The notes under the pieces were generated by a model that worked only from the letters and a program-made list of their open reading frames with translations, made no database searches and was not told the origin of the DNA. DNA of 64,000 bases from a virus, in IMG/VR virus record IMGVR_UViG_3300031873_000003, positions 1 to 64,000 of that record. One strand, written 5' to 3'. Both the position numbers and the translations under genes were made by a program. Shown here piece by piece: positions 27,908 to 64,000 of the stretch (positions are counted from its first letter, which is position 1; every line of letters starts with the position of its first letter).

Positions 27908-28612
27908 ATGTCAAAGCATGGTCCGATAGGTGGGGAGTCATGGAGAAGCACGGTCATTACTGGTTACGATAGCTCGGCAGTCAGTCAAAATAAAGACGGA
28001 TCGTTAATGGAGAGGTTGGAGGAACTCCGAAACCTTGTGATGTTGGGAGCGGTCGTTGGTTCCCGAAGTCAAAGTCCGTCAGTATCACCGTCAACGTCTC
28101 CGTCTGCCAGTCCATCCTTGAGTCCGTCAACCAGTCCATCCAAGAGTCCGTCGGCCAGTCCATCCAAGAGTCCGTCTGTCTCACCTTCGGCGTCGCCTTC
28201 CTTGAGTCCATCAGCTTCCGTGTCTCCATCGGCTTCGCCGTCCTTAAGCCCATCGGCCTCCGTGTCACCATCAACGAGTCCGTCAGTTTCTCCTTCTGTG
28301 TCACCTTCTGCATCACCATCCTTAAGTCCGTCGGCTTCGGTATCTCCCTCGGCTTCACCATCCTTGAGTCCGTCGGCTTCCGTATCACCGTCTACGAGTC
28401 CTTCGGTCTCACCTTCCACATCTCCATCACTAAGCCCGTCGGCTTCTGTGTCACCATCTGGATCTCCCTCCTTGAGTCCGTCGGTTTCACCTTCGGGATC
28501 GCCATCATTGAGTCCTTCGGTTTCACCTTCGGGATCGCCATCATTGAGTCCCTCGACCAGTCCATCCAAGAGTCCGTCGGCCAGTCCGTCATTATCCCCA
28601 TCCGGAGCTTGA
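27908..28612 (+). CDS. Ser-Pro-Ser-X repeat protein 1
   Basis: ~180 aa of SPSx repeats after a short N-terminal domain; AGGAG RBS. Confidence 0.8.
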   Translation: MSKHGPIGGESWRSTVITGYDSSAVSQNKDGSLMERLEELRNLVMLGAVVGSRSQSPSVSPSTSPSASPSLSPSTSPSKSPSASPSKSPSVSPSASPSLSPSASVSPSASPSLSPSASVSPSTSPSVSPSVSPSASPSLSPSASVSPSASPSLSPSASVSPSTSPSVSPSTSPSLSPSASVSPSGSPSLSPSVSPSGSPSLSPSVSPSGSPSLSPSTSPSKSPSASPSLSPSGA

Positions 28613-28613
28613 T

Positions 28614-28886
28614 ATGGGAATAGAAAAGAAAGTGAAATACGTCGAACCTGATTCAAGAAATTCCATCAGGACTTGTTTGTCGTGCGGCGCTTTGTCGGGG
28701 CCGCAAGGATGGGCAGGACTGTCGGTAAGAGAATGGGTGTGTTCGGCATGTGGTGCCGTGTGGGATCGAGACGTAAATTCGGCCCTAAACACCCTTATCG
28801 GGGCGGGTGCCGCCCACGAGGTGCATCATGCAGCAGCATGATTGCAGTCAGGAATCTGCTGGGCTTCAGCCCAAGCAGAGGCTCAA
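28614..28886 (+). pseudogene. tnpB: tnpB 3' fragment (zinc finger plus RuvC III) with IS605 right end
   Basis: SRNSIRTCLSCG...WVCSACG..WDRDVNSA; ends in hairpin CTGCTGGGCTTCAGCCCAAGCAG-AGGCTCAA. Confidence 0.8.
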
Positions 28887-29059
28887 TGGGCTTGTGGTAA
28901 GGCAATGGTGCTGTAGTGCTTGTGGGGCACATCATGACAGGGATCAAAACTTTGCCAAGAACGCACTATTTGCTGCGCTCGGAACGAGCGTCGAGAAGGA
29001 GGCAGCGTAATGGTTGCTTCCAACAGGAATCCCCCGGCTTTAGCCGTGGGGAGGTTCAA
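28887..29059 (+). pseudogene. tnpB: second tnpB 3' fragment with IS605 right end
   Basis: VRQWCCSACGAHHDRDQNFA; GAATCCCCCGGCTTTAGCCGTGGGGAGGTTCAA. Confidence 0.82.
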
Positions 29060-29145
29060 ACAGAAGAAAGATAAGGGGGACAAAGAAAAACTTAATAGAT
29101 ACCGCATTATAGAAAAAGCACGTCTTTTGCGGCCAACAAGGAGAA

Positions 29146-29436
29146 GTGATGAAATCAGGTTGCCAAACTACACGACCTCATACTCCCTATACGTCAAGAA
29201 AGCAGGCGATTGCAGGTAACATAGCGCTGGCGGCAAGGGAAGGGAGTATCCCTAAGTCGAAGTTGAAGGGTGCGTCCAGGGAGATGGCTAAGGGAATGAC
29301 ACTCAAAGAATTGAGAGGTCACTCAAAGGAGGCCGCCGGGAAGAACCTGCCCTACGCCGTGACGAGGCCGATACTTAAAGCAAAAAACATCCCACTAAGG
29401 GGATATTCTAATATCGGAAAGGAGAACAAAAGATGA
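29146..29436 (+). CDS. small basic protein
   Basis: PYTSRKQAIA...KLKGASREMAKGMT; true start may be downstream. Confidence 0.55.
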   Translation: MMKSGCQTTRPHTPYTSRKQAIAGNIALAAREGSIPKSKLKGASREMAKGMTLKELRGHSKEAAGKNLPYAVTRPILKAKNIPLRGYSNIGKENKR

Positions 29437-29654
29437 AAGGTAAAAAAGGATTAGGAAATTTGGATCTTATGGGTTCTATGGGGGGGCCTTCTTCGAGAGC
29501 ATCATTACCGCCTCCTATGTCAATGCCCCCGATGAAGCGTGCGCCAGTCATGAAACAAAAGGGAACGCCATTGTCGGGGTTCGCTCCTGCACCCAGGAAG
29601 GCAAAGAAAAAGATTCGGAAGGGGTCTGGGATGCCTCCTGGATTGATGATTTAA
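29433..29654 (+). CDS. small Lys/Met/Pro-rich protein
   Basis: GGAG RBS, ATGA coupling. Confidence 0.6.
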   Translation: MKGKKGLGNLDLMGSMGGPSSRASLPPPMSMPPMKRAPVMKQKGTPLSGFAPAPRKAKKKIRKGSGMPPGLMI

Positions 29655-29807
29655 CGCTGAATCAAAGCCACCGGGGGAACCTCGGGAAGAGCGGCCAGAG
29701 GTGTCGTGTAGCAATGCGAACCAATGAAGGTCGAACCATGTTTTTTGTGGAGTTCAACTTGCAATTGAGTGCAACTAATTGAGTTATAGATAAAGGAGGC
29801 AATAATT

Positions 29808-30484: not shown

Positions 30485-30592
30485 TTCTGCATCCATTAAA
30501 CGCCCCTGCTCTTAACGCAGATTCGGTGTTTTTGGAAATATAAGAAAGGCTTGGACCCCTACAAAAGGGATTCTCCAGGAGAGTGAAGATTA

Positions 30593-31618: not shown

Positions 31619-31631
31619 GGAGGAATATATC

Positions 31632-33139
31632 ATGGCAGAAATGACATGGGAATTTAGTGCACCATCAGGCGTCAATGTAGGCGCCATTAAGGAGTGATTC
31701 TTAATGCAAACCCAGAATTTGCTGGAAACACCGAGAATCCAACACTACTTGCCAGAAGGCAGTGAAAACGTGCTTGGTGCGGTCAATCAGCAGGCAGAAC
31801 AACCCTTAGCGAATGCTATGCCAACTCTTTACGAAGAGGTAGGTTGTTCGGCCCCAGAGACTTACAATGGGCATCTCTTACGAGAGATGGTGATAAAGTC
31901 CGGCCCTCCGGCGACGGAAGGGATGAGCCGCTACAAAAATTCCGCTATAAGTTCGAAGCTCCGTGAACAGTCGATTGCCGAGTCCAAGTTCATGGATTTC
32001 GTCAGGACGGAACCGGGTTTCGGAAAAAAGCGCGGAGAATCTATCACCATTACACGGGCTGATATTTTGACACAGCCTACCAGCGCCACCCTCTCCGAAC
32101 ACGATCGGATTCCTGTGGACGACTTTTCTCTGTCTACCACAGCTATCACAGTGTCGGAGTATGGCCGAGCAGTAACATTTACTCACATGAGTCAATTGCT
32201 TTCAAGGTTTGACCCACAAGACCCGATCCAGAAGGCTTTGCGGAAACAGATGACCAAGGCGCTGGACAGGCTTGCGGCAACAACCATGAAGACGACCTAC
32301 CTTATTTACGCTCCAACCTCATTGACGGGTGGAACGTTCATGGAGGACGGGACGATTGACACGGCGGCCTTAGTGAACGTCAACATCGATCACCTTGGGG
32401 CCATCAGGGATGCCTTTGCGGACACCTACGTCGTAGACCCCTACGAGGGAGACGACTACATTGGGCTGCTCTCAACAAAGGCCCTCAGAGGAATCAAGTC
32501 TGACGAAAATTTTGAGACTTGGAAACAGTATCTCCGGGAAGGAGACACCCTGCACAATTCCGAGGTCGGAAAGGTTGAGTCTATTCGGTGTATCGAGATC
32601 AAGGATACCAGTTGCCTTGCCAACAACAAGGGAACGGGATCTGTTCTTGGAGAAGGGATCATCTTCGGAGATGACTTCTGCGCCATGATCGAGGCAGAAA
32701 CGCCAGAGGTTAGGGTACAGGTCAACTTCGGACAAGATCATGGTAGAGTGAACTCAGCAGCCTGGTACGGTGTTGAACCCAACTACTTGAATTAATTGGG
32801 GAATGGCACCATTAAGGAGCGATCTTTAATGAAAAACCCTGAATTTGCTGGAATAACCGAGAATCCGACACTACTCGCCAATGGCAGTGAAAATGTGTTC
32901 GGTGCGGTCAATCAGCAGACAGGACGATCCTTAGCGTCTTCAAACGCTTTGCCAACTCTTACCGAAAGAGGTAGATCGTCCGGTTTCAGAGGCCACCAAG
33001 GGGCATCTCCACAAGGAGATGATGGTATGGTCCATCCCACCGGCGACGGATGGGGAGCCAATGCGTAGGCTTAGGTTTAGTTTGGCCGTTGACTGCCACG
33101 GCAGGAAAAGTCCGAGGGGCGTTCATAAGTTCCTCGTGA
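31632..33139 (+). CDS. major capsid protein, spliced: join(31632-31672, 31931-32773, 33064-33139), 319 aa
   Basis: Splicing gives MAEMTWEFSAPSGV|YKNSAISSKLR ... DHGRVNSAAWYGV|VGLGLVWP...; GKKRGESITI, EYGRAV, EVGKVESIRCIE are N4-gp56-like MCP motifs; AGGAGG RBS before 31632. Confidence 0.88.
31673..31930 (+). ncRNA. group I intron 1 (258 nt, ORF-less)
   Basis: P1 GGCGU/GCGCC with U-G wobble; P AATTTGCTGGAAA, Q AATCAGCAGG, R CAGAGACTTA, S ATAAAGTCC; terminal G; P10 TGTAG/CTACA. Confidence 0.88.
32774..33063 (+). ncRNA. group I intron 2 (290 nt, ORF-less)
   Basis: P1 GGUGU/GCACC; AATTTGCTGGAAT, AATCAGCAGA, TTCAGAGGCCA, TATGGTCC; terminal G; homologous to intron 1. Confidence 0.86.
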
Positions 33140-35964: not shown

Positions 35965-36189
35965 GTGTCGCCGAACGCATTCCCCTGATTTTAATCGGGG
36001 GTAAGTGAGGCACTTGACAAATTCAGGTAGGGCAGGATATGCCCTAATTAACGCCTGTGGAGAGACTCACCTCTGCTTTTCGATTTCGTCGAAAAGTAAG
36101 TGGACTCAAAGAAGCAGGAACCGTACTTGGAGGTTGCTAATGAGCAACCAACAAGGATGCCCCCGAATTCATTCGGGGGAGGATGTCAC
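35965..36189 (+). mobile_element. non-autonomous IS200/IS605 mini-element (left end + omegaRNA scaffold + right end)
   Basis: Left hairpin GCATTCCCCTGATTTTAATCGGGGGTAAG; AGGGCAGGATATGCCC..ACGCCTGTGGAG; right end GATGCCCCCGAATTCATTCGGGGGAGGATGTCAC. Confidence 0.78.
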
Positions 36190-36224
36190 GTGGGAGGAAA
36201 CTTAACAGAGGTGGAGAAGGTGTA

Positions 36225-36911
36225 ATGTGTGAATTAATAGTGAAGGCGGTAGATGCAACTCATCCAGACCCTGAGAAGGATAGAAGAGGATGCTATAAAA
36301 GGGGATACCCTGTCGCAGTCTATCCTGATGGAACTAAGTGGGGAGCCTGTGAGTGTTTACCCAGGTTTGTCATTATCAAATTTCCTGGAGTTCCTGTAGA
36401 TAATCCAATAGTGCAGAAATATACGAAACCTCATATTGAACCTTGTCAACAGACAAGAAGTTGGAATATTATCGAGTGGAATAGAGCTGTAGCAAGGAGT
36501 AAGTATCGGGAATTTTTATCCAAGCCTGTGGTTCTATCTACAGTGGATGAACCTTTTGAGAAAATAATTACTTTGGATCAATGGCAGGAAATGCAGGATG
36601 AAAACGATTATTATCCATTTTTTGTAATGCCAACCATTGAAATCCTTATAGGAGAAATAACAGGAATAAAGTTGTCTGGAACTGTTCGTTTAGTTGAGCT
36701 ACAGGGAGATATTAATACAACCATTATAAGGAGGCTTTGGCAAATACGTTGGGCGTCTTTGCCTCTTGTAGCAAGAAATAAGTTGGCATCGTTGGGAGAG
36801 TTAGTGATAAAGGTTGGTTTATATGGTGGCACGTATGATTACACTTGGGCACAGGTGAAAGGTTATTTCAGGAACCAGCAGACCAATCTGGATGAGACCG
36901 AGGACTTATAA
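36225..36911 (+). CDS. hypothetical virion-associated protein
   Basis: MCELIVKAVD...CYKRGYPVAVYPDG; abuts the next gene. Confidence 0.65.
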   Translation: MCELIVKAVDATHPDPEKDRRGCYKRGYPVAVYPDGTKWGACECLPRFVIIKFPGVPVDNPIVQKYTKPHIEPCQQTRSWNIIEWNRAVARSKYREFLSKPVVLSTVDEPFEKIITLDQWQEMQDENDYYPFFVMPTIEILIGEITGIKLSGTVRLVELQGDINTTIIRRLWQIRWASLPLVARNKLASLGELVIKVGLYGGTYDYTWAQVKGYFRNQQTNLDETEDL

Positions 36912-40019: not shown

Positions 40020-40020
40020 T

Positions 40021-42778: not shown

Positions 42779-42798
42779 AGGGGCGGCGGGAAACGAAA

Positions 42799-43560: not shown

Positions 43561-43570
43561 GGGTATCATC

Positions 43571-45815: not shown

Positions 45816-45822
45816 AATTCTC

Positions 45823-47129: not shown

Positions 47130-47131
47130 GG

Positions 47132-47725: not shown

Positions 47726-47726
47726 A

Positions 47727-51398: not shown

Positions 51399-52144
51399 AC
51401 TGCTTTATGTTCTTTAATGAGATAGACCTGCTTGAAATAAGATTGAATTCTCTTGCTCCTTACGTCAATCGTTTCGTGCTGTGCGAGATGCCAATAACTC
51501 ATAGCGGTAAACCAAAGCCTCTTTTTTTCCAGGACAATAAGGATAGGTTTAAGGATTTCAATATCACTTATCTGGTGGCGCCCCCCAGGGAAGGTAGTTC
51601 ATGGAAATTGGAGCATTACCAGAGGGATTATTTGTTAAATGGAATTACAGACGTAGACCCAGATGATATTATGTTGATCTCAGACATGGACGAGATTCCT
51701 GACATCAGCAAGTATCACCTCGGAGATGAGGGAGTCTTCAGGCAAAGCATGTATTACTACTACTTTAATGTCTATGTATCCGGAAGTTGGAAGGGGACGA
51801 TTGCGAAAAAACGTAAAAGCTTTGCAAACTTTAATGACATAAGAAATCTTAGAAACAGAATGCCAACCATTGTTAAGCAGGGGGGATGGCATTTTTCCAC
51901 TATGGGAACCGCAGAGGACATTAAGTATAAGATTGAATCTTTCGCCCACATTGAACTGGATAAACCTGAATTCAAGTCCAGGATTGAAGAAAATAGAAAG
52001 AACTTGGTTGATCCTTATAATCGTGGTGCGCCAAATTGGGGCGAGAGAGGACTAAAATTGATAGTGCAGATGCCCAGTGGGCCGCAATGGTTATTAGAGA
52101 ATAGGGAAAAATACGAACATTTATTTTGGAAGGGCGATGCATAG
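51383..52144 (+). CDS. GT17-like (beta-1,4-GlcNAc transferase-like) protein
   Basis: DCFMFFNEIDLLEIRL, THSGKPK, E..QR, ISDMDEIP, GGWHFS, KIESFAH. Confidence 0.88.
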   Translation: MVQLIDCFMFFNEIDLLEIRLNSLAPYVNRFVLCEMPITHSGKPKPLFFQDNKDRFKDFNITYLVAPPREGSSWKLEHYQRDYLLNGITDVDPDDIMLISDMDEIPDISKYHLGDEGVFRQSMYYYYFNVYVSGSWKGTIAKKRKSFANFNDIRNLRNRMPTIVKQGGWHFSTMGTAEDIKYKIESFAHIELDKPEFKSRIEENRKNLVDPYNRGAPNWGERGLKLIVQMPSGPQWLLENREKYEHLFWKGDA

Positions 52145-52610
52145 CAATAGCATTAAACTTATGCGTTGGTTTAGGGATAAGTATTTACAGGAGTTGAAAG
52201 GATGTACCGTGCTGGATATTGGGTCTAAGGTAGGCAGAACTTCAAGGAATGCTACGTACGGAGGTAGGGTATTTTTTCCCCCAGACTATAATTATATTGG
52301 AATGGATGTTGTTCCGGGAAGAAACGTGACAATAGTGGGATACGATAATCTTCCAGTGTGTGAGGTGGTTGTCAGTGGGCAGGTTATGGAGCATGTGCAG
52401 AGGCCGTGGGAGTGGCTGAAGAATTTGGTGCAATATTACACAAAGTTTATCTGTGTTATTGCTCCGAATACTTGCCCGGAGCATAAGTTTCCTTTCGATA
52501 CATATAGATATTTCACAGATGGAATGCGTGATTTATTTGAGTACGCAGGTATTCGAGAGATTGAAATCAGAATGAGTGGAAATGATACGATAGGAGTTGG
52601 GGGGAAATAA
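52137..52610 (+). CDS. SAM-dependent methyltransferase
   Basis: VLDIGS, GMDVVPG.NV, SGQVMEHV..PW. Confidence 0.85.
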   Translation: MHSNSIKLMRWFRDKYLQELKGCTVLDIGSKVGRTSRNATYGGRVFFPPDYNYIGMDVVPGRNVTIVGYDNLPVCEVVVSGQVMEHVQRPWEWLKNLVQYYTKFICVIAPNTCPEHKFPFDTYRYFTDGMRDLFEYAGIREIEIRMSGNDTIGVGGK

Positions 52611-52630
52611 TGCCAAACTTTACGGCAAGC

Positions 52631-52852
52631 TTAATTGCCCTTGGACAATACAACCCAGTCCGTTCCCGACATGTCTCCAGTAGAGATGACCAGGGGGTGA
52701 AGACTTTGGTCTTTGGGCGTGAAAATGACAAGTTTTTCCTGGGACATGACCACATAGGTTCCGTCGTCGGGCCATTCAAGGCGTCTCAGTTTTTTCCCTT
52801 CGAGAAGACTCTCGGTACAATCGGGGAAATCCATGGTGTTTTCTTCGTTCAT
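52631..52852 (-). CDS. DUF2829 / Tad2-like protein, antisense to the operon
   Basis: MDF.....LLEGKKLRRLEW...S.GDM..TDW; AGGAGG RBS; own TTGACA-N18-TATAAT promoter at 52909-52880. Confidence 0.68.
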   Translation of the reverse strand: MNEENTMDFPDCTESLLEGKKLRRLEWPDDGTYVVMSQEKLVIFTPKDQSLHPLVISTGDMSGTDWVVLSKGN

Positions 52853-52902
52853 TGTTGGCTGACCTCCTTTTTGGGCAATATTATACGCAAAGGCGTTGGT
52901 GA

Positions 52903-55377
52903 ATGTCAAGAAAAATCGACTTAGCAAGGGGGTATATGTCTCAAAAATATAGTTTAAGCGTGTGCATTCCCGCAAGAAACGAACAATTTCTTTCCCTTAC
53001 GGTTGATGATCTCTTGAAGAATATCCGAGGGAATACTGAAATCATCGTGATATGTGACGGGAACTATCCTGACCCTCCCATTAAGGATGACCCAAGGGTA
53101 ACGCTGATCTATCATAGCCAGTCTATTGGACAGAGAGCGGCATGTAATGAGGCGGCGAGGTATTCAAGGGCGAAATATCTGGCGAAGTGTGATAGCCACT
53201 GTTCCTTTGATGAAGGGTTTGATGTGAAGTTACTTGAAGATATGCAGGATGATTGGACGATGGTTCCGATCATGAAAAATTTATGGATTTATGATTGGGT
53301 GTGCGAATCAGGCCACCGTAGGTACCAAGGTCCTTCTGGCCCCTGTACGGAATGTGGTAAACCAACTGTAAGAGATTTGAAGTGGATCGGGAAAAATAAT
53401 CCACAGAGTACAGTATACTGCTTTGACCCCGAACCGCATTTCCAGTACGCAGTAGACTTTAAGAAACGGGATTGGTATCAAAAGTCTCTTAAAGAAACAG
53501 GGTTGACCGAGACAATGAGTTTACAGGGGTCTTTTTTCATGTTAACCCGACAGAAGTATTTTGAACTCAATATGAATGACGAGGAGTTCGAGAACTGGGG
53601 ATCGCAAGGTTTAGAAGTGGCAATAAAAACATGGACTTCTGGGGGAAAGGTTATCTGTTCTCATAAGACATGGTATTCTCACTGCTTTCACACGCAAGGG
53701 GGGGATTTCGGGTTTTCATGGCCTTGTTCTGGTAGACAGGTTGCCCGAACAAAGAGAAGGGCGAAACAAGTTTTCTTCAAACAAAAATGGGGACCACAGC
53801 AAAGATATCCCCTGAGCTGGCTTGTGGAACGATTTTGGCCTACTTCTTATTGGAAAGATGAGGATTTAAGGATTCTCAAGGCGACGGAGGCGACATTCTT
53901 TGACTTTGACCTTAAACTTTTCAGGGTTCCTGGCGTAGTTGGTTCTGTTCCAAGCCCGGTGACAGATCATACATCTTCTGTGTCCTCTCTTGTCGGGAGG
54001 AGGGAGCAAGTGCCCGTTTCTGCAATGAGTCAACCTGGTCTTCCAGGGGATAATCTTATCTCCGGGACCACGGTTCTCTCTGACGTTGGCACGTCGCCTA
54101 CGTTGACCGTCGGCAGCACAGATAGTACAGATACGAAAAGGAGGACTGTTGGGAAAGTGTCTCGTGGGGGGCAAGAGGTGTCCTCTGGGGCAGTGAGTTT
54201 TGGCACGGTTGACGGAAGAAACAGCATTGGAGGGACGGAGATTATCAATCTGCAAAGCCAATCTGAGATGGAAAGGACTACAACAAGCCCTATTATTACA
54301 GACAACATGATCAACAACGGGAATGCCAGTGGCGTAACCCATAGGGACGGGTCCGATAAGCCAGGCGAAAGTCAATCTGTGCATTCTGAAGGTGTGGTTG
54401 TGTCCGATAGAGTTGGCGAGACGTTTGAAGTTGCCAAGCCCATATCCATCCTTGTCGAGACTCCCCAGCCAGTTCCAGCACCCAGTGATAGGGTCAATCT
54501 CAATCTTGGAAAAAATTCTGTCGATGTCTCTTGCGGAAAGGGTGGGGATTATGAGAAAATTGGAATTAGACATGAATCCTCCCATAGTAAGGATTTGTGT
54601 TTAGGATTGGAACGGTGCGACGAACATCGTTCCATTCCGAATACTATACCACAAGCCGATAAATTACGCAAGTGTATAATATTTTACAGTGACAATGAAT
54701 TAGATGAAACGATCTTCAAGGCAGTCCAGAAACAACTCCTTCGATCCCTCAATGGCAACGAACTCATTTCTGTCACTCTCAAGCCAATAGACTTCGGCAA
54801 AAACATCGTCCTCCCCCTAAAACGTAGCCACCTTTCTATGGCACGTCAACAGCTTGCAGGGTTGGAGGCAAGTACAGCAGACATCATATTTTTCGCAGAG
54901 CACGATATTTTATATCCAAAAGAGCATTTTGATTTTACTCCCCCACGTAAAGATGTTTTTTATTACAATTTGAACTGGTACAAGGTTCGCACCCAGGACG
55001 GCCAATCTCTTCACTTTACGGCCAAGCAAGTAAGTGGCCTATGCGCTTACCGAGACATCCTTCTCGACTACTACCGGAAGAGGGTTTCCATGATCGAGAG
55101 TGGAGAGATTGGAGGGAGAAGGCATTTTGAGCCAGGAAGCAATCATTACAGGGATGCGTATGATAAGCTTACCAACCTTGGGTCTGATACCTGGCGATCT
55201 TCCGTCCCTTACGTGGACATTAGGCACAAAGGAACTGTGACCAGGAATATCTTCGATCCCTCTGGTTATCGCAACACGATGAAGGATTGGACAATGGTGG
55301 ACGAGATACCTGGAGGGTGGGGAAAAACAAAAGGAAGATTTTGGGAGTTCTTGCAGGAGGCGGTCGATGCCATATAA
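52903..55377 (+). CDS. two-domain glycosyltransferase with a ~270-aa insert that is the antisense of an HNH gene
   Basis: N-terminal GT2 (SVCIPARNE..KCDSH); C-terminal GT-A (IIFYSDN..FFAEHDILY); alternative start 52936. Confidence 0.82.
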   Translation: MSRKIDLARGYMSQKYSLSVCIPARNEQFLSLTVDDLLKNIRGNTEIIVICDGNYPDPPIKDDPRVTLIYHSQSIGQRAACNEAARYSRAKYLAKCDSHCSFDEGFDVKLLEDMQDDWTMVPIMKNLWIYDWVCESGHRRYQGPSGPCTECGKPTVRDLKWIGKNNPQSTVYCFDPEPHFQYAVDFKKRDWYQKSLKETGLTETMSLQGSFFMLTRQKYFELNMNDEEFENWGSQGLEVAIKTWTSGGKVICSHKTWYSHCFHTQGGDFGFSWPCSGRQVARTKRRAKQVFFKQKWGPQQRYPLSWLVERFWPTSYWKDEDLRILKATEATFFDFDLKLFRVPGVVGSVPSPVTDHTSSVSSLVGRREQVPVSAMSQPGLPGDNLISGTTVLSDVGTSPTLTVGSTDSTDTKRRTVGKVSRGGQEVSSGAVSFGTVDGRNSIGGTEIINLQSQSEMERTTTSPIITDNMINNGNASGVTHRDGSDKPGESQSVHSEGVVVSDRVGETFEVAKPISILVETPQPVPAPSDRVNLNLGKNSVDVSCGKGGDYEKIGIRHESSHSKDLCLGLERCDEHRSIPNTIPQADKLRKCIIFYSDNELDETIFKAVQKQLLRSLNGNELISVTLKPIDFGKNIVLPLKRSHLSMARQQLAGLEASTADIIFFAEHDILYPKEHFDFTPPRKDVFYYNLNWYKVRTQDGQSLHFTAKQVSGLCAYRDILLDYYRKRVSMIESGEIGGRRHFEPGSNHYRDAYDKLTNLGSDTWRSSVPYVDIRHKGTVTRNIFDPSGYRNTMKDWTMVDEIPGGWGKTKGRFWEFLQEAVDAI
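53866..54573 (-). CDS. HNH homing endonuclease nested antisense inside the glycosyltransferase
   Basis: GCWNWLG..DKDGYG, HRL.F, VDHVVCNNRACC.P.HL, KTHCPRGH and THCRNGH zinc fingers; GGAGG RBS; TTGCGT-N17-TATAGT promoter at 54671-54643. Confidence 0.92.
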   Translation of the reverse strand: MSNSNFLIIPTLSARDIDRIFSKIEIDPITGCWNWLGSLDKDGYGLGNFKRLANSIGHNHTFRMHRLTFAWLIGPVPMGYATGIPVVDHVVCNNRACCSPFHLRLALQIDNLRPSNAVSSVNRAKTHCPRGHLLPPTRHFPNSPPFRICTICAADGQRRRRANVRENRGPGDKIIPWKTRLTHCRNGHLLPPPDKRGHRRCMICHRAWNRTNYARNPEKFKVKVKECRLRRLENP

Positions 55378-55609
55378 AAAATACCCACCCGTAGATGAAG
55401 CGACGATGGACAGAAAAAGATTCGAGGGACATCATTCCGTGTGCCAGACCCTAAGAGATATTTATCATCTTACGGATGATCCGGAGATTAAGCTTAAGTG
55501 CAGGTTGGCGGTGGCAATGACGAAAGCTATGCACGAGCGCCTAAAATGGTACAAGGCAAAGAACCTTGCCGAAGCAGAAATAAGGGAGAAAAAGGATGCC
55601 TCAACTTAA
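55367..55609 (+). CDS. hypothetical protein, paralog of the 44223 gene
   Basis: SVCQTLRDIY...DPEIKLKCRLA..M.KAM. Confidence 0.65.
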   Translation: MPYKKYPPVDEATMDRKRFEGHHSVCQTLRDIYHLTDDPEIKLKCRLAVAMTKAMHERLKWYKAKNLAEAEIREKKDAST

Positions 55610-56579
55610 CTTTGAATATAAAAACCTTATAGGCATTTCAAGGCAGAAGGATACCAACAGAATTCCGGTAGGATATGTTGCCTACGCCATGAATGTTGAT
55701 TCGGATGATGAAAAGAAACTTCGTAGACGCAGGGGTCTTACTTCTGTTTCCACGGTGAATACCCATAGCGTATGGTCAAACAGGGATATCTGTCTATGTG
55801 TCCAGGGAGGCGTCTTAAAAGAGGTAACAATTAACCTTGTTACCAACACAGCCACCTATGTTACCCTGTTATCTGGGGCGGGCGATACACCCATGATCTT
55901 TCGGGAAGCGGGGGATATGGTCTTTTTTTCCAATAGCGACGTTTTTGGATATATCCGGGAACATGCGGTACATGGTATTTCAGAAGTTAGCGAGACCTTT
56001 AAGGTTCGGATGGTGGGAGGACACCTGATGGAATATTGGGATTCTCGCCTATGGGTATTTCAGGATAACATTCTGATTTATTCCGATGCCACAGAACCAA
56101 TGGTTAGAGACGAGAGGCATAACTTCGTGACGTTCAATGGCCGTGGAAGGATGCTTGAGGCCGTCAGGGACGGGATTTACGTGAGCGATAACGAAAGGTG
56201 TGGTTTTCTTCAGGGAGGAGCGGGAGACCCTCCCAAGTTCAATTATACCGAGGTCTGTCCTTCTCCATGTATCGAAGGCATGGCAGTCTCAAGTGTTGAA
56301 CAATTAGCAGGAATATCGGTTAAGGTGGTATTCTGGGTTACAGAGGAAGGTTGTTACATGGGACTGCCAGGGGGGCAAGTGAATAAGGTTACGGGGGATC
56401 ATTTTTACATTGAAGGGGCGTCAATAGGGAGGATGATGGTTTTGAATAGGTCTTTTCCGGATCATACAAGTATTGACCAGCTATTAGGGACCTATGACTT
56501 ATGGCCTGGCTATGGAGGAATGGAAATAGAGTTAGATGTTCCGGCGACGGACGTTGACGGTCGCATTACTGCGGCTTAA
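55596..56579 (+). CDS. putative tail tubular/nozzle-like beta protein
   Basis: NVD.D....LRRRRG start; beta-rich; position in the structural module. Confidence 0.5.
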   Translation: MPQLNFEYKNLIGISRQKDTNRIPVGYVAYAMNVDSDDEKKLRRRRGLTSVSTVNTHSVWSNRDICLCVQGGVLKEVTINLVTNTATYVTLLSGAGDTPMIFREAGDMVFFSNSDVFGYIREHAVHGISEVSETFKVRMVGGHLMEYWDSRLWVFQDNILIYSDATEPMVRDERHNFVTFNGRGRMLEAVRDGIYVSDNERCGFLQGGAGDPPKFNYTEVCPSPCIEGMAVSSVEQLAGISVKVVFWVTEEGCYMGLPGGQVNKVTGDHFYIEGASIGRMMVLNRSFPDHTSIDQLLGTYDLWPGYGGMEIELDVPATDVDGRITAA

Positions 56580-56617
56580 TCTTACGCTTTTGCGTAGAAG
56601 AAAGGGAGGAAAGGAAA

Positions 56618-57409
56618 ATGACGGTAAAATATTCGAGGGCTTTAATAAATTTGTTGGCTGATGGAAAGGGATTAAGGGAAATTTATGGAGATTGCGTCTT
56701 AGATGTGTATTCTGGGACGGCTCCTACAAACCCGGAAGATGCGGCAACGGGAACAAAGCTTTGCAAGTTTACCTTGTCAAGTGCCGCCGTAGTAACTACT
56801 GACCGAGGCGTTCCGAGAGTCTACAAGCTTGTTCCTGCTACCGGTTCTACGCCGGGCAGCACCATTAAAGTTACCGTTACGGTGGAGGGAGTTGGTACCA
56901 CACACATCTATACCATTTTGGCGGCTGACAGTACAGACCAGAAGGTTGCCGTGAAGGTGGCACAGATGTTAAACGATCTTCCTCAGATTCAGGCTATCTG
57001 TGAGGGAGACACAGTAAATATCTGGGCACAATGTAGGATTCCTGGTTTGGCATTGACGATTGCCGATGGAACCGGTACTTATGGAATCAACTGCTCGGCA
57101 AAGGTGGCGGCGGTCGCCACAAACGCCCTCCAGTTTAGTGCGCCAACGGCAGGGGTTATTTCAAAACCAACGGCAGCTACCTGGACAGGAACTAACCTTG
57201 CAACCGGAACGGCAGGATATTTTAGATTATGCCTTCCGGTAGACCCCGAAAGTGCGGGAACTCCAACCGCTGACACTGGTTACATCTACAAGAGAACTCA
57301 AGGAACGCTTGCGACGGTAGGAGGGGACGCACAGATTGATCCAACAACGGTGACATTGAGTGCAACGTCAACGGTTACATCGTTCAGCTTGACAGTACCG
57401 ACGTCTTAG
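56618..57409 (+). CDS. virion structural protein
   Basis: LDVYSGTAP..PEDAATGTKL...ATGTAGYFRL. Confidence 0.65.
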   Translation: MTVKYSRALINLLADGKGLREIYGDCVLDVYSGTAPTNPEDAATGTKLCKFTLSSAAVVTTDRGVPRVYKLVPATGSTPGSTIKVTVTVEGVGTTHIYTILAADSTDQKVAVKVAQMLNDLPQIQAICEGDTVNIWAQCRIPGLALTIADGTGTYGINCSAKVAAVATNALQFSAPTAGVISKPTAATWTGTNLATGTAGYFRLCLPVDPESAGTPTADTGYIYKRTQGTLATVGGDAQIDPTTVTLSATSTVTSFSLTVPTS

Positions 57410-57454: not shown

Positions 57455-60400
57455 ATGCCTGAATCTGCTTCGATGAGTCCGAGCGAATCGCCGAGCGAAT
57501 CACCTTCGTTGAGTCCATCGGCCTCTGCATCACCATCGATTTCGCCGTCGCTCAGCCCGAGCGCAAGCGTCAGTCCATCGATTTCGCCTTCGAGATCACC
57601 CTCCGGGAGTCCTTCGGCGTCACCATCGTTAAGTCCGAGCGCAAGCATTTCGCCTTCGACGTCACCATCCAAAAGTCCGTCGGAGTCGCCATCGAGAAGT
57701 CCATCCAAAAGTCCTTCTGGAAGTCCTTCAATGTCTCCAAGCGAAAGTCCCTCAAAATCGCCTTCGGCGTCACCATCCTTAAGTCCGTCAACGTCACCAT
57801 CGTTAAGCCCCAGCGCAAGCCTTTCTCCGTCCCTGAGTCCTTCGGCCAGCTTGTCGCCGAGTGCAAGCCCAAGCGTATCACCCAGCATGTCACCCTCTGC
57901 ATCGCCATCGTTAAGTCCAAGTCCCGTGATAGATATTATTAAGGCTGGATGTTCGATAAGCAGCATAAGCTCAAATAATGGACGAAAACTTGTCCGAGAT
58001 AGCACAGGAAGATTGCACGTTGTTTATCATAGGGTTGCAACTGTCTGGAATATTTATCATTCGTATTCGGATGACAGCGGACAAACATGGACGGAAGAAG
58101 CGATTACAAGTGATGCATCGTACAACCAGTGGAGTCCATCCATAGCCATCGATAGTAGCAATCACTTGCATGTGGTATGGCATGGAACATCTGTCTTATC
58201 CACCACTATTGACCAAATCAGATATTCTAAATACGAAGGTTCGTGGAGTACGCCGGTTGACTTAACCGGGGAAGTTTACACGCAGGCACTTCCTTCGATA
58301 GCCATTGATAGCGGTGATCATATACATGTGGTTTGGGAGGGAATGTCCTCCGTGTCCCCAAGTTACACTCAGGTTAGGTATTCTCAGTACGAATCTTCCT
58401 GGAGTGCGCCTACCAACCTAACCAGCGGAAACCTCTGGAGGTGGAATCCCTCCGTAGCCATTGATAGTGGGAATAATTTGCATATTGTTTGGGGGGAAGG
58501 CCCCGATAGTCTTACCAGCCAAATAATGTATTCTAAGGGTGCGCCCTGGAGCCCCGTCCAGTTAAGCGATGGCAGTTATATGCAGGCTGACGCCTCTATT
58601 GCCATCGATAGCAGTAATCATGTGCACGTTGTCTGGGAGGGTAGGTCTCCCGCTCTCCCGGACTATAATCAAATCAGGTATGCTAAATATGAAGCTTCGT
58701 GGAGCACGGTTGTCGATTTAACTGGGACGAAGACCGTGGGTTATGATCAGCAAAGCCCTTCCATAGCGATCGATACCGGTGACCGGTTACATGTAGTGTG
58801 GTATGGCGCATCGGTGGTTTCTCCAAGCGCTTATCAAATCAGGCATACCAAATATGACGGTTCATGGAGTACGGACACTGACTTAACTACTGATAGTGTG
58901 TCTCAATATTATCCTTCAACTCTATGGGCAAACAATATTTATTCGGTCAATGCACAGGGTTATTGTTTCGCCTACATGGATGACACAACCCTAACGTTTT
59001 ATGCGAGCGACGAAATATCTTTCTATGGAATGGCTTCCCCCAGCTTATCGCCAAGCCTGAGCCCAAGCAAATCGCCAAGTCAATCTCCATCACTCTCTTC
59101 TTCGGGCAGCCCAAGCTTAAGTCCGAGCCCGTCGCCATCGCTTTCACCCTCGGCCTCGGAAAGCCCTTCGGCGTCACCATCGTTGAGTCCAAGCGCAAGC
59201 CTATCTCCTTCGGCCTCTGTCAGTCCAAGCACATCACCCTCGCTATCTCCATCGGCCTCTATTAGCCCAAGCGAGTCACCGTCGAGAAGTCCCTCTAAAT
59301 CACCTTCGGCGTCACCATCTATAAGCCCTTCGGCGTCACCATCGTTAAGTCCGAGCGCAAGCCTATCGCCTTCGGCCTCTGTCAGTCCAAGCGCATCTCC
59401 TTCGCTATCTGCAAGTTTGAGTCCATCGCCTTCGGCCTCTGTCAGTCCAAGCGCATCTCCTTCGGTGAGCCCAAGCCCAAGTGCGGGAACCCTTATCTGT
59501 GATTTAGCCTTTGCTCTTAGCGTTCCGGCAATAGAGGTTAGCGGAAAAATCGCTGGCCCAGGGTTGATAGGACCATCGCTTGAATTACCGGCGATTGTGG
59601 TTTCAGGCAATATCGTTACCGGCGGGGCGTTTTCGGCAATCCTTGAGCTTGCACCTCATGCATCAGGAACTATTCGTGTTGGAGGGTTGTTTTCGGGGAC
59701 AATCAATGTTCCCATTGAGGTATCAGGAACGATTTATAGTGGTGGCGGATTGGTTGCCTCGTTAATCCTTCCTGCGATACATGTTGATGGCCTCATTGCC
59801 AAAAACACGACTGGGTTTGAAATCACTGTTCCCGTGATAACCCTTTCGGGCACGATCATTACCGGAAGAGTGGTTAGTGGCGGAGTAAGCGTTCCTGCGA
59901 TTAAGGTTCTGGCAACCATCGGCCATTATAATTCGCTGACATTTGACCTCGATTTGCCTGAGATAACTACCAACCTTTTTATTATGGGAGCGCAAAAGAT
60001 CACGGTTCAAGGCGCTCCTCTTCGGAAGGCGTTCGTTGTTAATTTAGCTCATTTCGGGGTGACAGAATACTCTGGATACTCTTTCAATTCATTTGCTAAC
60101 TACCATTTTAGTAAAACCTACATAGGCGCCAGCGAAGAAGGTATTTTTGTGCTGGACGGGGATGACGACAATGGCGTTAGGATCAATGCTACAATTCAAC
60201 CAGGGAATGAAGACCTTTGGTCACAGACGATAAAGCGACTTAGGGAGGGTTTTGTAACGATGAGGGGTGGGCCAATTTCCATCGAACTGATTCTTGACGA
60301 AGGAAGGTTAGACCCGGTGACGAGGGATTTAGAGTATGTCGAAAGTACGATTCATGAAGAGCGATTTAAAATATCACGGGGGTTGAAGAATAGATTTTTT

Positions 60401-60490
60401 TCTGTGATTTTTAAAAACTTAGGTGGGAATGACTTTAGCCTTGAGTCTTTCCGATTTTTTTGCGATGAGATTCAAAGGAGAAAACGTTGA
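57455..60490 (+). CDS. tail-associated protein: SPSx tract, BNR-like beta-propeller, SPSx tract, tail domain
   Basis: SDDSGQTW Asp-box; repeated PSIAIDS.xxHVVW blades; SPS tracts at ~57461-57925 and ~59033-59483. Confidence 0.8.
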   Translation: MPESASMSPSESPSESPSLSPSASASPSISPSLSPSASVSPSISPSRSPSGSPSASPSLSPSASISPSTSPSKSPSESPSRSPSKSPSGSPSMSPSESPSKSPSASPSLSPSTSPSLSPSASLSPSLSPSASLSPSASPSVSPSMSPSASPSLSPSPVIDIIKAGCSISSISSNNGRKLVRDSTGRLHVVYHRVATVWNIYHSYSDDSGQTWTEEAITSDASYNQWSPSIAIDSSNHLHVVWHGTSVLSTTIDQIRYSKYEGSWSTPVDLTGEVYTQALPSIAIDSGDHIHVVWEGMSSVSPSYTQVRYSQYESSWSAPTNLTSGNLWRWNPSVAIDSGNNLHIVWGEGPDSLTSQIMYSKGAPWSPVQLSDGSYMQADASIAIDSSNHVHVVWEGRSPALPDYNQIRYAKYEASWSTVVDLTGTKTVGYDQQSPSIAIDTGDRLHVVWYGASVVSPSAYQIRHTKYDGSWSTDTDLTTDSVSQYYPSTLWANNIYSVNAQGYCFAYMDDTTLTFYASDEISFYGMASPSLSPSLSPSKSPSQSPSLSSSGSPSLSPSPSPSLSPSASESPSASPSLSPSASLSPSASVSPSTSPSLSPSASISPSESPSRSPSKSPSASPSISPSASPSLSPSASLSPSASVSPSASPSLSASLSPSPSASVSPSASPSVSPSPSAGTLICDLAFALSVPAIEVSGKIAGPGLIGPSLELPAIVVSGNIVTGGAFSAILELAPHASGTIRVGGLFSGTINVPIEVSGTIYSGGGLVASLILPAIHVDGLIAKNTTGFEITVPVITLSGTIITGRVVSGGVSVPAIKVLATIGHYNSLTFDLDLPEITTNLFIMGAQKITVQGAPLRKAFVVNLAHFGVTEYSGYSFNSFANYHFSKTYIGASEEGIFVLDGDDDNGVRINATIQPGNEDLWSQTIKRLREGFVTMRGGPISIELILDEGRLDPVTRDLEYVESTIHEERFKISRGLKNRFFSVIFKNLGGNDFSLESFRFFCDEIQRRKR

Positions 60491-60529
60491 CAGTGACTTT
60501 TTATAGAAACCATGTAAAGGAGAAACAAC

Positions 60530-61723: not shown

Positions 61724-61764
61724 ATGTAGTATACTTCAATGTATGCAACCATTTAGGAGGGACT

Positions 61765-62466
61765 ATGCCAGAGCGACTAAATAAAAGGATTTGCGAGTTT
61801 TGCGGCAAGGAATATCAGACACACAACAGTACAAGAACGTGCTCTATAAAGTGTCGTGACCACTTAAAAACGCAGAACAGGATACAGCGATCTGAAACTA
61901 AGGAATGCCCGATCTGCGGAGAGATAAGTAAGTTGCAGTGGATTGCTCACGGGATAAGTGTGTGCAGTTTGAGATGCAAACGAACAATTAACTCAAGGGA
62001 ATGGCGCAACCAACATGGCGGATCAGTTGATATTAGTAAACGTAGCACAATAAAGCCTTTTGTAACTTGTAAGGTGTGCGGGAAAATCGTTTTGGGTAAA
62101 AGCTACAAACAATTATATTGCAGTAGAGAGTGTAAAATAATTGGCGGACATCGAAACAAGAAAATGATAGTTGATAATAAAAGGGAGTCTATAAAGACTT
62201 GCGAAATATGCGGCGTGTCTATTGATAAAATTCCAACTCCAAGAGAACTCAACTTCAGATCGTTTGGGCAAAGGGCGATGGATACTAAGGTGCAATTCGA
62301 TCACATTGTTTGCCGAGTTGATAACGGACAAAACAACGACGAGAATCTTCGAGGTGTGTGTTGGATGTGTAACCACGTAAGGGGAACGATGGACAAGAAG
62401 TTCGACAACGCCGTGGCAAAAGCGTCAATAGCGTTTTGGGCTGAGGTATTTGCTACAATTACCTAG
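61765..62466 (+). CDS. HNH endonuclease with zinc-finger repeats
   Basis: Multiple CxxC/CS..C; FDHIV....GQN...NL..VCWMCN. Confidence 0.85.
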   Translation: MPERLNKRICEFCGKEYQTHNSTRTCSIKCRDHLKTQNRIQRSETKECPICGEISKLQWIAHGISVCSLRCKRTINSREWRNQHGGSVDISKRSTIKPFVTCKVCGKIVLGKSYKQLYCSRECKIIGGHRNKKMIVDNKRESIKTCEICGVSIDKIPTPRELNFRSFGQRAMDTKVQFDHIVCRVDNGQNNDENLRGVCWMCNHVRGTMDKKFDNAVAKASIAFWAEVFATIT

Positions 62467-62474
62467 GAGGATCA

Positions 62475-62840
62475 ATGGACATAAAACGTAATCCCGCTGG
62501 ATTAGGATGGATGGTAAGGTACGATAATGGAACGTATACAATATTTTACACACAAAAGGAGGCAGTGAAATGTATGGCAAAAATTGATACAGTAAAAGCG
62601 ATCATCAATGCAGTTAAAAGTCTGGCAACAGCAACCGATCAAGCAACAGATTTAGTCAGCGAATACTGGGATGTTGGAACATTCGTTGACGAGGATGTAG
62701 CAGCGTTGGGCATCACTGCTGCACAGCTTACATCCTGCATTACGTTATTAGAGCAGGTAGATAAACTCATGACGAACCAAGAGACAAGCCTATCTATGTA
62801 TAGAACTACCCTGAATCAAGTTCGAAGGGTTGCAACGTAA
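62475..62840 (+). CDS. hypothetical protein
   Basis: GGAGG RBS; alternative internal start MAKIDTV. Confidence 0.6.
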   Translation: MDIKRNPAGLGWMVRYDNGTYTIFYTQKEAVKCMAKIDTVKAIINAVKSLATATDQATDLVSEYWDVGTFVDEDVAALGITAAQLTSCITLLEQVDKLMTNQETSLSMYRTTLNQVRRVAT

Positions 62841-62914
62841 ATTATAGAATATACGTTGCTTACGATACAACGAACTGGAGACCGATTAACTAAGTAAATA
62901 AGAAGGGAGATCCC

Positions 62915-63229
62915 ATGAAGATTAATTTTAGTCAAGCGTTAAAGGCGTTGGATGGAACACCAATCTCAAGACTTGACGGAAAGGGAGAATTTACCCTCAA
63001 GTTTGTTTCCCAGGAAGCGTTACTTTTATCCTTTCAGGACGAACAGGGGTTGGGGGGAGAAGAGAAAACCAGGAGGTGGGTTTTGGCTACGATGATTGAG
63101 GCAAACCCAGAGAAAATTGATTTAACCTCGGAGCAGATAGCGTTGATTAAGAAACTTATTGGCAAGGCTTATGGGCCGCTTATCGTTGGTCAGGCATGGG
63201 AGTTGTTGGAGGCGGGAGTCACTGGTTAG
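62915..63229 (+). CDS. putative tail fibre assembly/chaperone-like protein
   Basis: MKINF.Q.L..LDG...EEK..R..LA...LT.E...LIK..IGK.Y.PL.VG. Confidence 0.6.
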   Translation: MKINFSQALKALDGTPISRLDGKGEFTLKFVSQEALLLSFQDEQGLGGEEKTRRWVLATMIEANPEKIDLTSEQIALIKKLIGKAYGPLIVGQAWELLEAGVTG

Positions 63230-63242
63230 GGGGAACTGAACT

Positions 63243-64000
63243 TTGGCCGACATCATAAAGTATGGAACTGGAATTCTATATGGTACGGGTCATCTATATG
63301 GAGAATATATTCCCTCGGCCTCGATATCTCCGAGCCTTTCGCCCTCTAAGGGTCCTTCGGTTTCTCCATCCCTAAGTCCTTCGGCTTCTATAAGTCCTTC
63401 GTTATCTCCATCAGTCTCACCTTCAATCAGTCCTTCGGTCTCACCTTCGGTCTCACCCTCTTTAAGCCCATCTGTTAGTCCAAGTTTATCACCGTCGGCC
63501 AGTCCATCCTTGAGTCCATCATTGAGTCCTTCTGCTTCCTTGAGTCCCAGTCTAAGTCCGTCTAAATCTCCTTCTGTATCACCCTCGGTATCACCTTCAC
63601 TATCACCCTCTCTTAGTCCGAGTGAATCTCCGAGTCTCTCTCCTTCGGCCTCATTATCTCCATCATTGAGTCCGTCTGTTTCACCGTCCGTTAGCCCATC
63701 GATTTCACCGAGCCTATCACCGAGTTTATCTCCGTCGGAAAGTCCGAGTCTTTCACCCTCTGCGAGTTTAAGCCCATCTGAAAGTCCGTCACTTAGTCCA
63801 AGTGTATCGCCTTCTTTTTCGCCATCGATGAGTCCGTCTTTATCACCTTCGGAGAGCCCTTCGTTAAGTCCAAGTGCTTCGCTCTCTCCGAGCCTGTCAC
63901 CAAGCAAATCTCCAAGTCTGTCACCATCGGCTTCGCTCTCACCCAGCTTGTCACCGAGCGAAAGTCCTTCTGCCAGTCCTTCTGTAGGCAGTTTTTCCTT
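63243..64000 (+). CDS. Ser-Pro-Ser-X repeat protein 4 (partial, runs off the window; not in the ORF track)
   Basis: TTG start, MADIIKYGTGILYGTGHLYGEYIPSASISPSLSPS...; open to the window end. Confidence 0.78.
   Translation, partial: MADIIKYGTGILYGTGHLYGEYIPSASISPSLSPSKGPSVSPSLSPSASISPSLSPSVSPSISPSVSPSVSPSLSPSVSPSLSPSASPSLSPSLSPSASLSPSLSPSKSPSVSPSVSPSLSPSLSPSESPSLSPSASLSPSLSPSVSPSVSPSISPSLSPSLSPSESPSLSPSASLSPSESPSLSPSVSPSFSPSMSPSLSPSESPSLSPSASLSPSLSPSKSPSLSPSASLSPSLSPSESPSASPSVGSFS

Follow-up and report, generated by a model that had tools for sequence, protein, structure and literature searches.

What would a phage do with long serine-rich repeats encoded on either side of a cluster of sugar-transferring enzymes? 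This question is raised by the genome of an uncultured tailed phage, IMG/VR virus record IMGVR_UViG_3300031873_000003, a 93,790-bp sequence that CheckV scores as 100% complete and whose structural block lies on the + strand. We analyzed bases 1-64000 of this record (the window, 64,000 nucleotides). Four + strand genes encode tracts of the type (Ser-Pro-Ser-X)n, here called SPSX tracts, and these genes flank the enzyme cluster at 41774-55377. A preliminary description of the window had proposed that the enzymes and the Ser-rich substrates of a virion glycosylation system are both encoded by the phage. Comparative evidence favors this core idea: tracts and enzymes are jointly absent from close relatives, the lead enzyme resembles glycosyltransferases (GTs) of family GT27, and its family is coupled to Ser-rich tracts in other genomes. 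The earlier reading as a whole is partly supported. We think it likely that the phage encodes a cytoplasmic protein O-glycosylation system acting on its own proteins; the Ser repeats are probably sugar-coated. The four tract proteins are (aa, amino acids):

27908-28612, + strand: SPSX protein 1, 234 aa; a 46-aa N-terminal domain, then a tract at aa 47-234 (28046-28609) that runs up to the stop codon.
36912-40019, + strand: SPSX protein 2, 1035 aa; a beta-helix at aa 1-298, a tract at aa 299-1021 (37806-39974) and a 14-aa aromatic tail.
57455-60490, + strand: SPSX protein 3, 1011 aa; a tract at aa 1-161 (57455-57937), a six-bladed BNR-like propeller, a second tract at aa 521-681 (59015-59497) and a C-terminal domain at aa 684-1011.
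63243 to genome base 65450 (past the window end at 64000), + strand: SPSX protein 4, 735 aa; a 21-aa N-terminus followed by a tract at aa 22-615 (63306-65087).

Together, the tracts (188, 723, 161 + 161 and 594 residues) sum to 1,827 residues, 891 of them Ser; their composition is ~49% Ser and ~22% Pro, with 12 Thr in 1,827 aa. The X of SPSX is mainly L, V, I or A, and next E, K, T or G. The repeat units are mostly 4 residues long, with a minority of 6 (105 and 11, respectively, in the gene at 63243). A comparable tract is absent from every other gene of the 93.8-kb genome. Each tract uses all six Ser codons, and the only arrays that Tandem Repeats Finder picks up within the tracts are short and degenerate, with 67-91% matching; it is therefore the peptide that is conserved, not a DNA repeat. 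On this point the codon counts and the repeat search agree with the preliminary description, which had noted the mixed Ser codons. It had also placed the tracts correctly: all of them (two in the gene at 57455) lie in open + strand frames.

Could such sequences be low-complexity junk, or artefacts of reading the wrong frame, without any selected function? The opposite strand is also open over the tracts (e.g., 37730-39721), as it is with any such repeat. However, in-frame fusions link the tracts to conserved domains on either side, the peptide is kept despite scrambled codons, and the same architecture recurs in hundreds of proteins. This explanation is effectively refuted, and the in-frame fusion to domains conserved elsewhere makes the reading frame of the tracts secure.

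Used as a query, one tract segment matched at least 597 IMG/VR stretches; tblastn retained 3, presumably because of the low complexity of the sequence. In relatives of the 36912 protein, the repeats that follow the beta-helix take the forms (SxSPSGS...)n, (ATPS/SASVS)n, (SSSSH)n or poly-Ser interrupted by single F, I or R, and in relatives from metagenome-assembled genomes (MAGs), TPT- or SSS-type linkers follow the domain. Across these sequences the feature that is kept is Ser richness and not the exact motif, so that a role as substrate or spacer fits better than a folded repeat. Two other repetitive proteins were seen in phages with the beta-helix family: a collagen-like 713-aa protein with hundreds of Gly-Thr-Ser/Gly-Ser-Ser triplets (L045/L046:1090-3231) and a 1,229-aa protein with ~1,000 residues of poly-Ser interrupted by single I, R or F (L044:5383-9072).

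Do close relatives of the phage carry the tracts, the enzymes, or both? Through the portal protein we found two relatives, G001 (145 kb, 100% complete) and G002 (88 kb, 94% complete). Their portal proteins are 71-72% identical and their capsid proteins 86-88% identical to those of the phage, with scaffold-like, neck and tail genes in the same order. The conserved genes of the window are:

21056-23728, + strand: large terminase, with a LAGLIDADG-type insert.
25231-27078, + strand: portal.
31704-32795, + strand: major capsid protein.
40733-41758, + strand: conserved core gene at the left edge of the enzyme cluster, 62-63% identity to the G001/G002 homologues.
55596-57409, + strand: conserved neck and virion genes at the right edge of the cluster, 54-67% identity to the G001/G002 homologues.
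55596-56579, + strand: Hc3-like (phrog_8040, E 7e-25).
56618-57409, + strand: virion structural (phrog_3758, E 1e-10).

G001 and G002 contain no Ser-rich tract, no match to PF00535 and no match to A2, the family profile of the lead enzyme described below. Homologues of 40733 and 55596 are adjacent in both genomes, so that either this phage gained the 13.8 kb at 41774-55609 or the relatives lost them. The homologues of the 57455 protein are 380 aa (G001) and 309 aa (G002) long and match aa 684-1011 only, with 48% identity; the tract-propeller-tract portion is thus an N-terminal add-on to a conserved virion protein. The relatives have no counterpart of 27908, of 36183/36912 (36183 is the gene just upstream of the beta-helix gene) or of 63243, and the gene after 63243 (65434) is conserved. 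Five separate sites, the cluster and four others, therefore differ in the same direction, as functional linkage predicts. The preliminary description had held that relatives keeping SPS tracts without GTs would speak against it; these two lack both. One complete phage genome pairs candidate substrates, 891 Ser in four proteins, with a dedicated enzyme set, and its relatives without both provide a clean natural control.

What kind of enzyme might act on the tracts? The lead candidate is:

52903-55377, + strand: lead enzyme, 824 aa; a GT-A domain (52945-53886), an insert of ~250 aa at the linker and a C-terminal domain (54640-55362).

Against the A2 profile, which we built from 16 family proteins, 52903 gives two domain matches (E 6e-150 and 1.5e-89). 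Other phages either combine the two domains in a single protein of 520-600 aa or have a free-standing GT domain. Among all PDB sequences, the best matches of A2 are polypeptide N-acetylgalactosamine (GalNAc)-transferases, T1 first (E 1.8e-10), then T2, T9, T7, T10 and T4 (to E 3e-5). The residues D85, A86 and H87 of A2 are invariant, and HMMER aligns its DAHC to the DxH metal site (LDAHC) of GalNAc-T1. Likewise, WGxxGxE...W.SGG...H.FR of A2 aligns to the Gal/GalNAc-T motif, in a match to GalNAc-T1 residues 171-288 with a domain i-Evalue of 2.3e-6. Twenty-five phage family members share this motif, as does 52903, which keeps WGSQGLE...SGG...HCFH and has the DxH as DSHC. Its motifs mark the lead enzyme as distantly related to the GalNAc-transferases that initiate mucin-type glycosylation, and transfer to polypeptide is predicted.

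Several features set the family apart. No ricin-type (CBM13) lectin domain, and no Pfam domain other than PF00535/PF13641, was found in the 16 members. Nor is there a membrane anchor: no transmembrane (TM)-like segment was detected, the maximum 19-residue hydropathy being 1.05 for 52903 and 0.82 for 41774. A CxxC...CxxC zinc-ribbon-like insert within the GT-A domain (A2 positions ~118-155, window ~53250-53370) is nearly invariant and is absent from animal GalNAc-transferases; it has a weak PDB match to ribosomal protein L37 and may be an acceptor-binding element. The profile of the family C-terminal domain, A3, has no meaningful match in the PDB, and its best 30 atlas clusters are viral. The family is large (>5,100 clusters at E <= 1e-5 among 8,000 candidates scored) and carries no name beyond 'glycosyltransferase family 2'; the lead GT has no relative among ~50,700 isolated phage genomes.

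The insert of 52903 (window 53866-54640) splits the two domains exactly at profile position 312, the interdomain linker, and keeps an open frame of ~250 aa. An HNH gene (53866-54585) lies antisense within it, and free-standing homologues of this gene are present in G001, G002 and G031, in the last just upstream of the GT. Long forms of the family recur, with at least 20 members of 800-880 aa in the protein database.

The enzymes around 52903 bear out the glycosylation cluster that the preliminary description had placed between the tract genes. Pfam and NCBIfam matches across 41774-55377 reveal at least seven GT domains, among them five or more of GT2 type and one in a GT17-like protein, along with two Methyltransf_24 enzymes, a partial epimerase/dehydratase, an asparagine-synthase-like PP-loop protein and a radical-SAM-like protein (SAM, S-adenosylmethionine):

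41774-42778, + strand: diverged paralogue of the polypeptide GalNAc-transferase-like GT-A domain (Pfam GT2 E 2e-13; A2 profile E 2e-52).
42799-43560, + strand: NAD-dependent epimerase/dehydratase-like, C-terminal part of the family only (Pfam Epimerase E 6e-16, profile positions 78-240).
43430-44230, + strand: free-standing copy of the family C-terminal domain.
45823-46572, + strand: accessory GT2-like transferase (Pfam Glyco_tranf_2_4 E 7e-5, below the curated cut-off).
46569-47129 and 47132-47725, + strand: two Methyltransf_24 SAM methyltransferases (Pfam E 1.5e-16 and 1.6e-14).
47727-48452, + strand: asparagine-synthase-like PP-loop protein (Pfam Asn_synthase E 2.5e-20).
48427-49074, + strand: radical-SAM-like protein (Radical_SAM E 2e-4, below the cut-off).
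49038-49760 and 49675-50529, + strand: two GT2 transferases (Pfam).
51383-52144, + strand: accessory GT17-like transferase (Pfam Glyco_transf_17 E 1.1e-25).

The protein at 41774 is 28% identical to aa 17-317 of 52903; it keeps the DxH as DDHT and has lost the WG motif. Its other half appears at 43430, which is 27% identical to aa 592-745 of 52903, covers A2 positions 323-536 and has no Pfam or PDB match. The epimerase-like gene at 42799, which matches NCBIfam GalE/RmlB/RmlD-like models well under their cut-offs, sits between the two halves of this split GT copy. The products of 47727 and 48427 are probably sugar-tailoring enzymes.

Among the nine transferase-type proteins that we scanned (the GT domains and adjoining unnamed ORFs, open reading frames), a TM-like segment is absent from all except the unnamed 44540, which makes cytoplasmic action plausible. 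Pfam scans of 20 cluster genes detected no GT-B (Glycos_transf_1) and no Sec components. An ORF of 408 aa on the + strand (window 44531-45766), which has a TM-like segment and matches no family, is overlapped almost fully by a 396-aa ORF on the opposite strand.

Does this enzyme family travel with Ser-rich tracts elsewhere? The preliminary description had suggested looking for co-occurrence of SPS tracts and GT clusters across phage genomes. We chose 38 IMG/VR loci solely by homology, 7 of them to 49675 and 31 to the GT domain of 52903, and in 28 of the 38, Ser-rich, mostly SPS-type tract ORFs lie within 10 kb. The tract ORFs are on the GT strand in 39 of 41 cases, and several begin directly after the GT gene. 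By the same criteria, tracts were found in 10 of 80 loci picked by the beta-helix and in 3 of 51 pieces of other phages, some of these control positives being wrong-frame artefacts. The Fisher test gives p ~1e-10 for the GT-picked loci versus the controls, a value that is too strong, since the loci are not phylogenetically independent and two contigs entered twice. One of the tract-negative GT loci for which more contig is available has an SPS tract farther off.

The conserved core over these 38 loci consists of the GT27-like domain (38), its C-terminal domain (33) and a Methyltransf_24 enzyme (31), the remaining cluster genes being accessory. Homologues of 47132 are present in 31/38 loci and those of 46569 in 17/38; the GT17-like 51383 has homologues in 3/38 only. 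The seven IMG/VR contigs with homologues of 49675 (44-69% identity) have Ser-rich tract genes within 10 kb in four cases and farther along the contig in two.

Two contigs picked by other means are consistent with this coupling. G005, the sole contig picked by SPS tracts alone that has real SPS-tract genes, carries the family C-terminal domain at its cut end. In G031, which was picked by the beta-helix, homologues of 52903, 49675 (39% identity), 41774 and 43430, together with a free-standing homologue of the HNH gene, lie directly upstream of a 36183-like gene; the beta-helix protein of this contig follows that gene and contains a 250-residue Ser-rich tract. We also tried the plain presence or absence of GT2 genes among beta-helix-bearing phages. 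This does not track the tracts, and a signal is seen only for the 52903-type family.

The family is found in cells as well. It occurs in 80 MAG loci, of which 46 are from the candidate phyla radiation (CPR)/Patescibacteria by record title and 21 are in bins labelled Gammaproteobacteria or Pseudomonadales; a few others come from DPANN archaea, Planctomycetota and Anaerolineae. Mis-binned phages may account for some of these contigs. SPS-type tract ORFs, up to ~2,700 aa, are present in the flanks of 46 of the 80 loci; these ORFs all share the strand of the GT and, with few exceptions, lie downstream of it.

The main alternative is that the SPSX tracts are unmodified extended linkers or spacers and that the cluster modifies some other target, such as host envelope glycans, a lipid carrier or the phage DNA. 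Consistent with this, multi-domain proteins from Chloroflexi and Saccharibacteria MAGs have DIGADEY-ending beta-helix domains that precede linkers of the TPT or SSS type, several phages have GT2 genes without tracts (G007, G011, G035 and G045), and the literature describes phage GTs whose target is DNA or the host serotype (PMC12619734). However, the GT2 genes of these tract-less phages gave no tblastn match to 52903 or 49675 in the flanks examined, and it is the 52903-type family that tracks Ser-rich tract genes, in phages and in cells. This family moreover resembles protein-Ser/Thr transferases at the motif level, and tracts and cluster were gained or lost jointly at five separate sites. We therefore regard bare linkers as an unlikely explanation and favor glycosylation of the tracts.

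Several points nevertheless weigh against glycosylated tracts. Ser/Pro linkers serve unmodified as spacers in many secreted bacterial enzymes. The likeness to GT27 is distant: in Pfam the family scores as generic GT2, and it is without the ricin-type lectin domain or membrane anchor, having instead a zinc-ribbon-like insert and a C-terminal domain of its own. In addition to the overstated Fisher value, the coupling has exceptions: four GT-bearing contigs (40-78% complete) are without a tract in the contig sequence examined, and the poly-Ser fragments G022, G034 and G038 and the SPS-type G036 are without GT2, these fragments covering 2-32% of the genome. Finally, the proteins encoded at 27908 and 63243 are without a recognized virion domain.

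Are the four proteins part of the particle? The preliminary description had called all of them virion-module proteins. Direct support for this exists only in the 57455 protein, whose C-terminal domain is shared with the relatives and gives a match to phrog_26502 'virion structural protein' (E 2e-13); for the 36912 protein the support comes from fold and position, and for the 27908 and 63243 proteins from gene position alone. The tract genes lie between the portal/capsid genes and the neck/tail genes, which links them to the virion. The same C-terminal domain has a weak PDB match to a 'Structural protein', and an IMG/VR pattern search with it gave no close relatives. The propeller of this protein has six BNR-like blades, with a weak Pfam match to BNR_2 and an atlas score of 0.91; no sequence match to the BNR region was found in the PDB.

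The beta-helix of the 36912 protein is the best defined of the remaining domains. The gene usually preceding it is:

36183-36911, + strand: gene usually preceding the beta-helix gene, 242 aa.

Modelled with AlphaFold2 from an alignment of 33 relatives, the N-terminal domain of 36912 is a right-handed beta-helix with a predicted local distance difference test score (pLDDT) of 93 and a predicted template modelling score (pTM) of 0.92; from the single sequence the pLDDT is 30. Foldseek matches this model with probability 1.00 to Pel9A, to PL6 alginate lyase and to chondroitinase B, and also finds models of phage tail fibres and tailspikes. On this model we are confident that the domain is a pectate-lyase-like right-handed parallel beta-helix. 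Its family, the members of which end in WDIGADEY, was found at no fewer than 132 IMG/VR loci and no fewer than 154 MAG loci, many of them in CPR and DPANN bins, and has no relative among ~50,700 isolated phage genomes. The N-terminal ~70 aa of 36183 have tblastn matches in 45 of the 83 loci searched, including G031, and lie directly upstream of the beta-helix gene among the matches listed. The 36183-like gene and the beta-helix gene appear to be a conserved pair (window 36183-37820, loci L012-L091).

The other two proteins offer less. The 27908 protein has one homologue, P0005, with the same N-terminal domain and an SPS tract plus a globular C-terminal domain of ~140 aa. The other phmmer matches are mostly unrelated Ser-rich proteins, some of them from diatoms; we rejected these, leaving P0005 as the sole true homologue. 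The C-terminal ~120 aa of the 63243 protein (genome 65088-65450; L092:2088-2450) consist of about six 20-residue repeats of the type PPLLSPEGGFGY..LKMVV, which have no family match. The earlier statement that the tracts adjoin beta-helix or beta-propeller domains is thus right for 36912 (beta-helix) and 57455 (propeller) and does not apply to 27908, with its 46-aa N-terminal domain, or to 63243, with a 21-aa N-terminus and short repeats. Similarly, the idea of stalks presenting binding domains suits 57455, in which the propeller lies between two tracts, and possibly 36912 if the beta-helix is distal; it fails for 27908, which ends in its tract, and for 63243, which is without a recognizable globular domain.

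In another explanation, the tracts are glycosylated and the proteins are not part of the virion, acting instead in or on the host cell, for example by mimicking or competing with a surface fibre of SPS repeats made by the host, or by forming a matrix that surrounds infected cells. In its favor, the same cassette adjoins giant SPS-repeat proteins in CPR bacteria, and no virion domain was found in 27908 or 63243. In contrast, all four genes lie within the co-oriented structural block, the tracts of 57455 are fused to a C-terminal domain conserved as a virion structural protein, and the beta-helix of 36912 belongs to the tailspike/depolymerase fold class. We judge a role away from the particle quite improbable.

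Beyond the tract genes, large and poorly annotated tail or internal proteins continue to ~81 kb of the genome. The nearest isolated relatives of the capsid protein are from Vibrio phages and are only 27% identical, which places the phage far from anything cultured. In the 890-aa terminase, aa 275-346 match LAGLIDADG/Hom_end; the terminases of G001/G002 (536-548 aa) align with aa 421-890 only, indicating an intein or other insertion in the N-terminal half of 21056-23728. The capsid ORF at 31704-32795 encodes 363 aa, of which only aa 77-357 align with the 319-aa capsid proteins of G001/G002.

How might the system work? We propose that the soluble, two-domain transferase 52903, of which 41774 and 43430 form a diverged split copy, starts sugar chains on tract Ser residues in the cytoplasm during infection; its C-terminal domain could be a second transferase or an acceptor clamp. 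The other GT2 transferases and the GT17-like transferase would lengthen the chains, and the Methyltransf_24 pair, with the epimerase-like, amidotransferase-like and radical-SAM-like proteins, would tailor or cap the sugars. The substrates would be the four proteins of the structural block, which, once modified, would assemble onto the particle. The 57455 protein would attach by its conserved C-terminal domain and hold its propeller ~160 residues out; the 36912 protein would join a lyase- or tailspike-like beta-helix to a tract of 723 residues, a stalk of up to ~200 nm if extended (at ~0.3 nm per residue). This would give the particle a brush, or extended stalks that resist proteases and resemble mucin. 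Resting on observation are the tract and enzyme genes, their insertion relative to G001/G002, the motif likeness to GT27 and the coupling of the enzyme family to Ser-rich tracts across genomes; Ser as the acceptor, the identity of the sugar, the virion placement of all four proteins and the purpose of the coat are what we infer.

Which host would such a phage infect? The cellular copies of the cassette are mostly in CPR bacteria, and the spread of the beta-helix family is likewise rich in CPR and DPANN; these distributions make a CPR/Patescibacteria bacterium the probable host. On a broader scale it is possible, and we offer this tentatively, that CPR bacteria and their phages share a very large family of GT27-like polypeptide O-glycosyltransferases (>5,100 sequence clusters) that builds methylated, mucin-like brushes on SPSX fibres, with the phage fibres mimicking or engaging the SPS-glycoprotein fibres of the host. 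The family would then be a prokaryotic or viral sister, or the source, of the eukaryotic mucin-type initiating enzymes.

Mucin-type O-glycosylation, initiated by GT27, is regarded as a eukaryotic trait, and to our knowledge the glycosylation of phage-particle proteins has been shown only in a few mycobacteriophages. Our literature searches, made in a partial library and hence no proof of novelty, turned up nothing published on SPS repeats or GT27-like enzymes in phages. If the tracts are indeed glycosylated, this would establish a new and widespread system of protein glycosylation in prokaryotes and give a molecular handle on CPR surface biology and on the recognition between CPR bacteria and their phages. 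It would also provide a soluble, cytoplasmic, repeat-directed O-glycosyltransferase for glyco-engineering.

How does the proposed system compare with those already known? Like eukaryotic GT27 enzymes (GalNAc-T1, PDB 1xhb; GalNAc-T2), the phage enzyme has a GT-A domain with DxH and Gal/GalNAc-T motifs, and as with GT27 acting on mucin tandem repeats, its presumed acceptors are long Ser-/Pro-rich tandem repeats. In contrast to GT27, it has no lectin domain, anchor or Golgi context, and it carries a zinc-ribbon-like insert and an unrelated, mainly viral C-terminal domain; the phage acceptor tracts are Ser-only, whereas mucins are Thr-rich.

A second comparison is with virion glycosylation in the mycobacteriophages Che8, Corndog and Myrna, where glycans are found on the C-termini of capsid and tail-tube subunits (Freeman et al, 2023, Cell Host Microbe 31:1216, as relayed by PMC12619734 and PMC12582341). 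There, phage GTs modify the phage's own structural proteins in the cytoplasm, as proposed here. That system has been shown experimentally, whereas the present one is predicted from genes; here four accessory proteins, whose tracts measure 160-720 residues, are the candidate substrates, and the type of the lead enzyme is different. The substrates would differ from the mycobacteriophage type because the capsid protein at 31704 is without a Ser-rich tract.

The third parallel is provided by the glycoproteins with serine-rich repeats (SRR) found in Gram-positive bacteria (GspB, Fap1 and PsrP), which have dedicated cytoplasmic glycosylation by GtfA/GtfB and an accessory Sec system (PMC7948813, PMC6973325). 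In these proteins very long Ser-rich repeats are O-glycosylated in the cytoplasm by enzymes encoded alongside, yielding fibres with a binding domain, and we propose the same plan for the phage. The phage differs in that its initiating enzyme would be a GT-A, GT27-like protein and not GtfA/GtfB, in that there is no accessory Sec export, in its SPSX repeat unit and in that the carrier is a phage. The present case combines features of these three known systems with a new enzyme family and new substrates.

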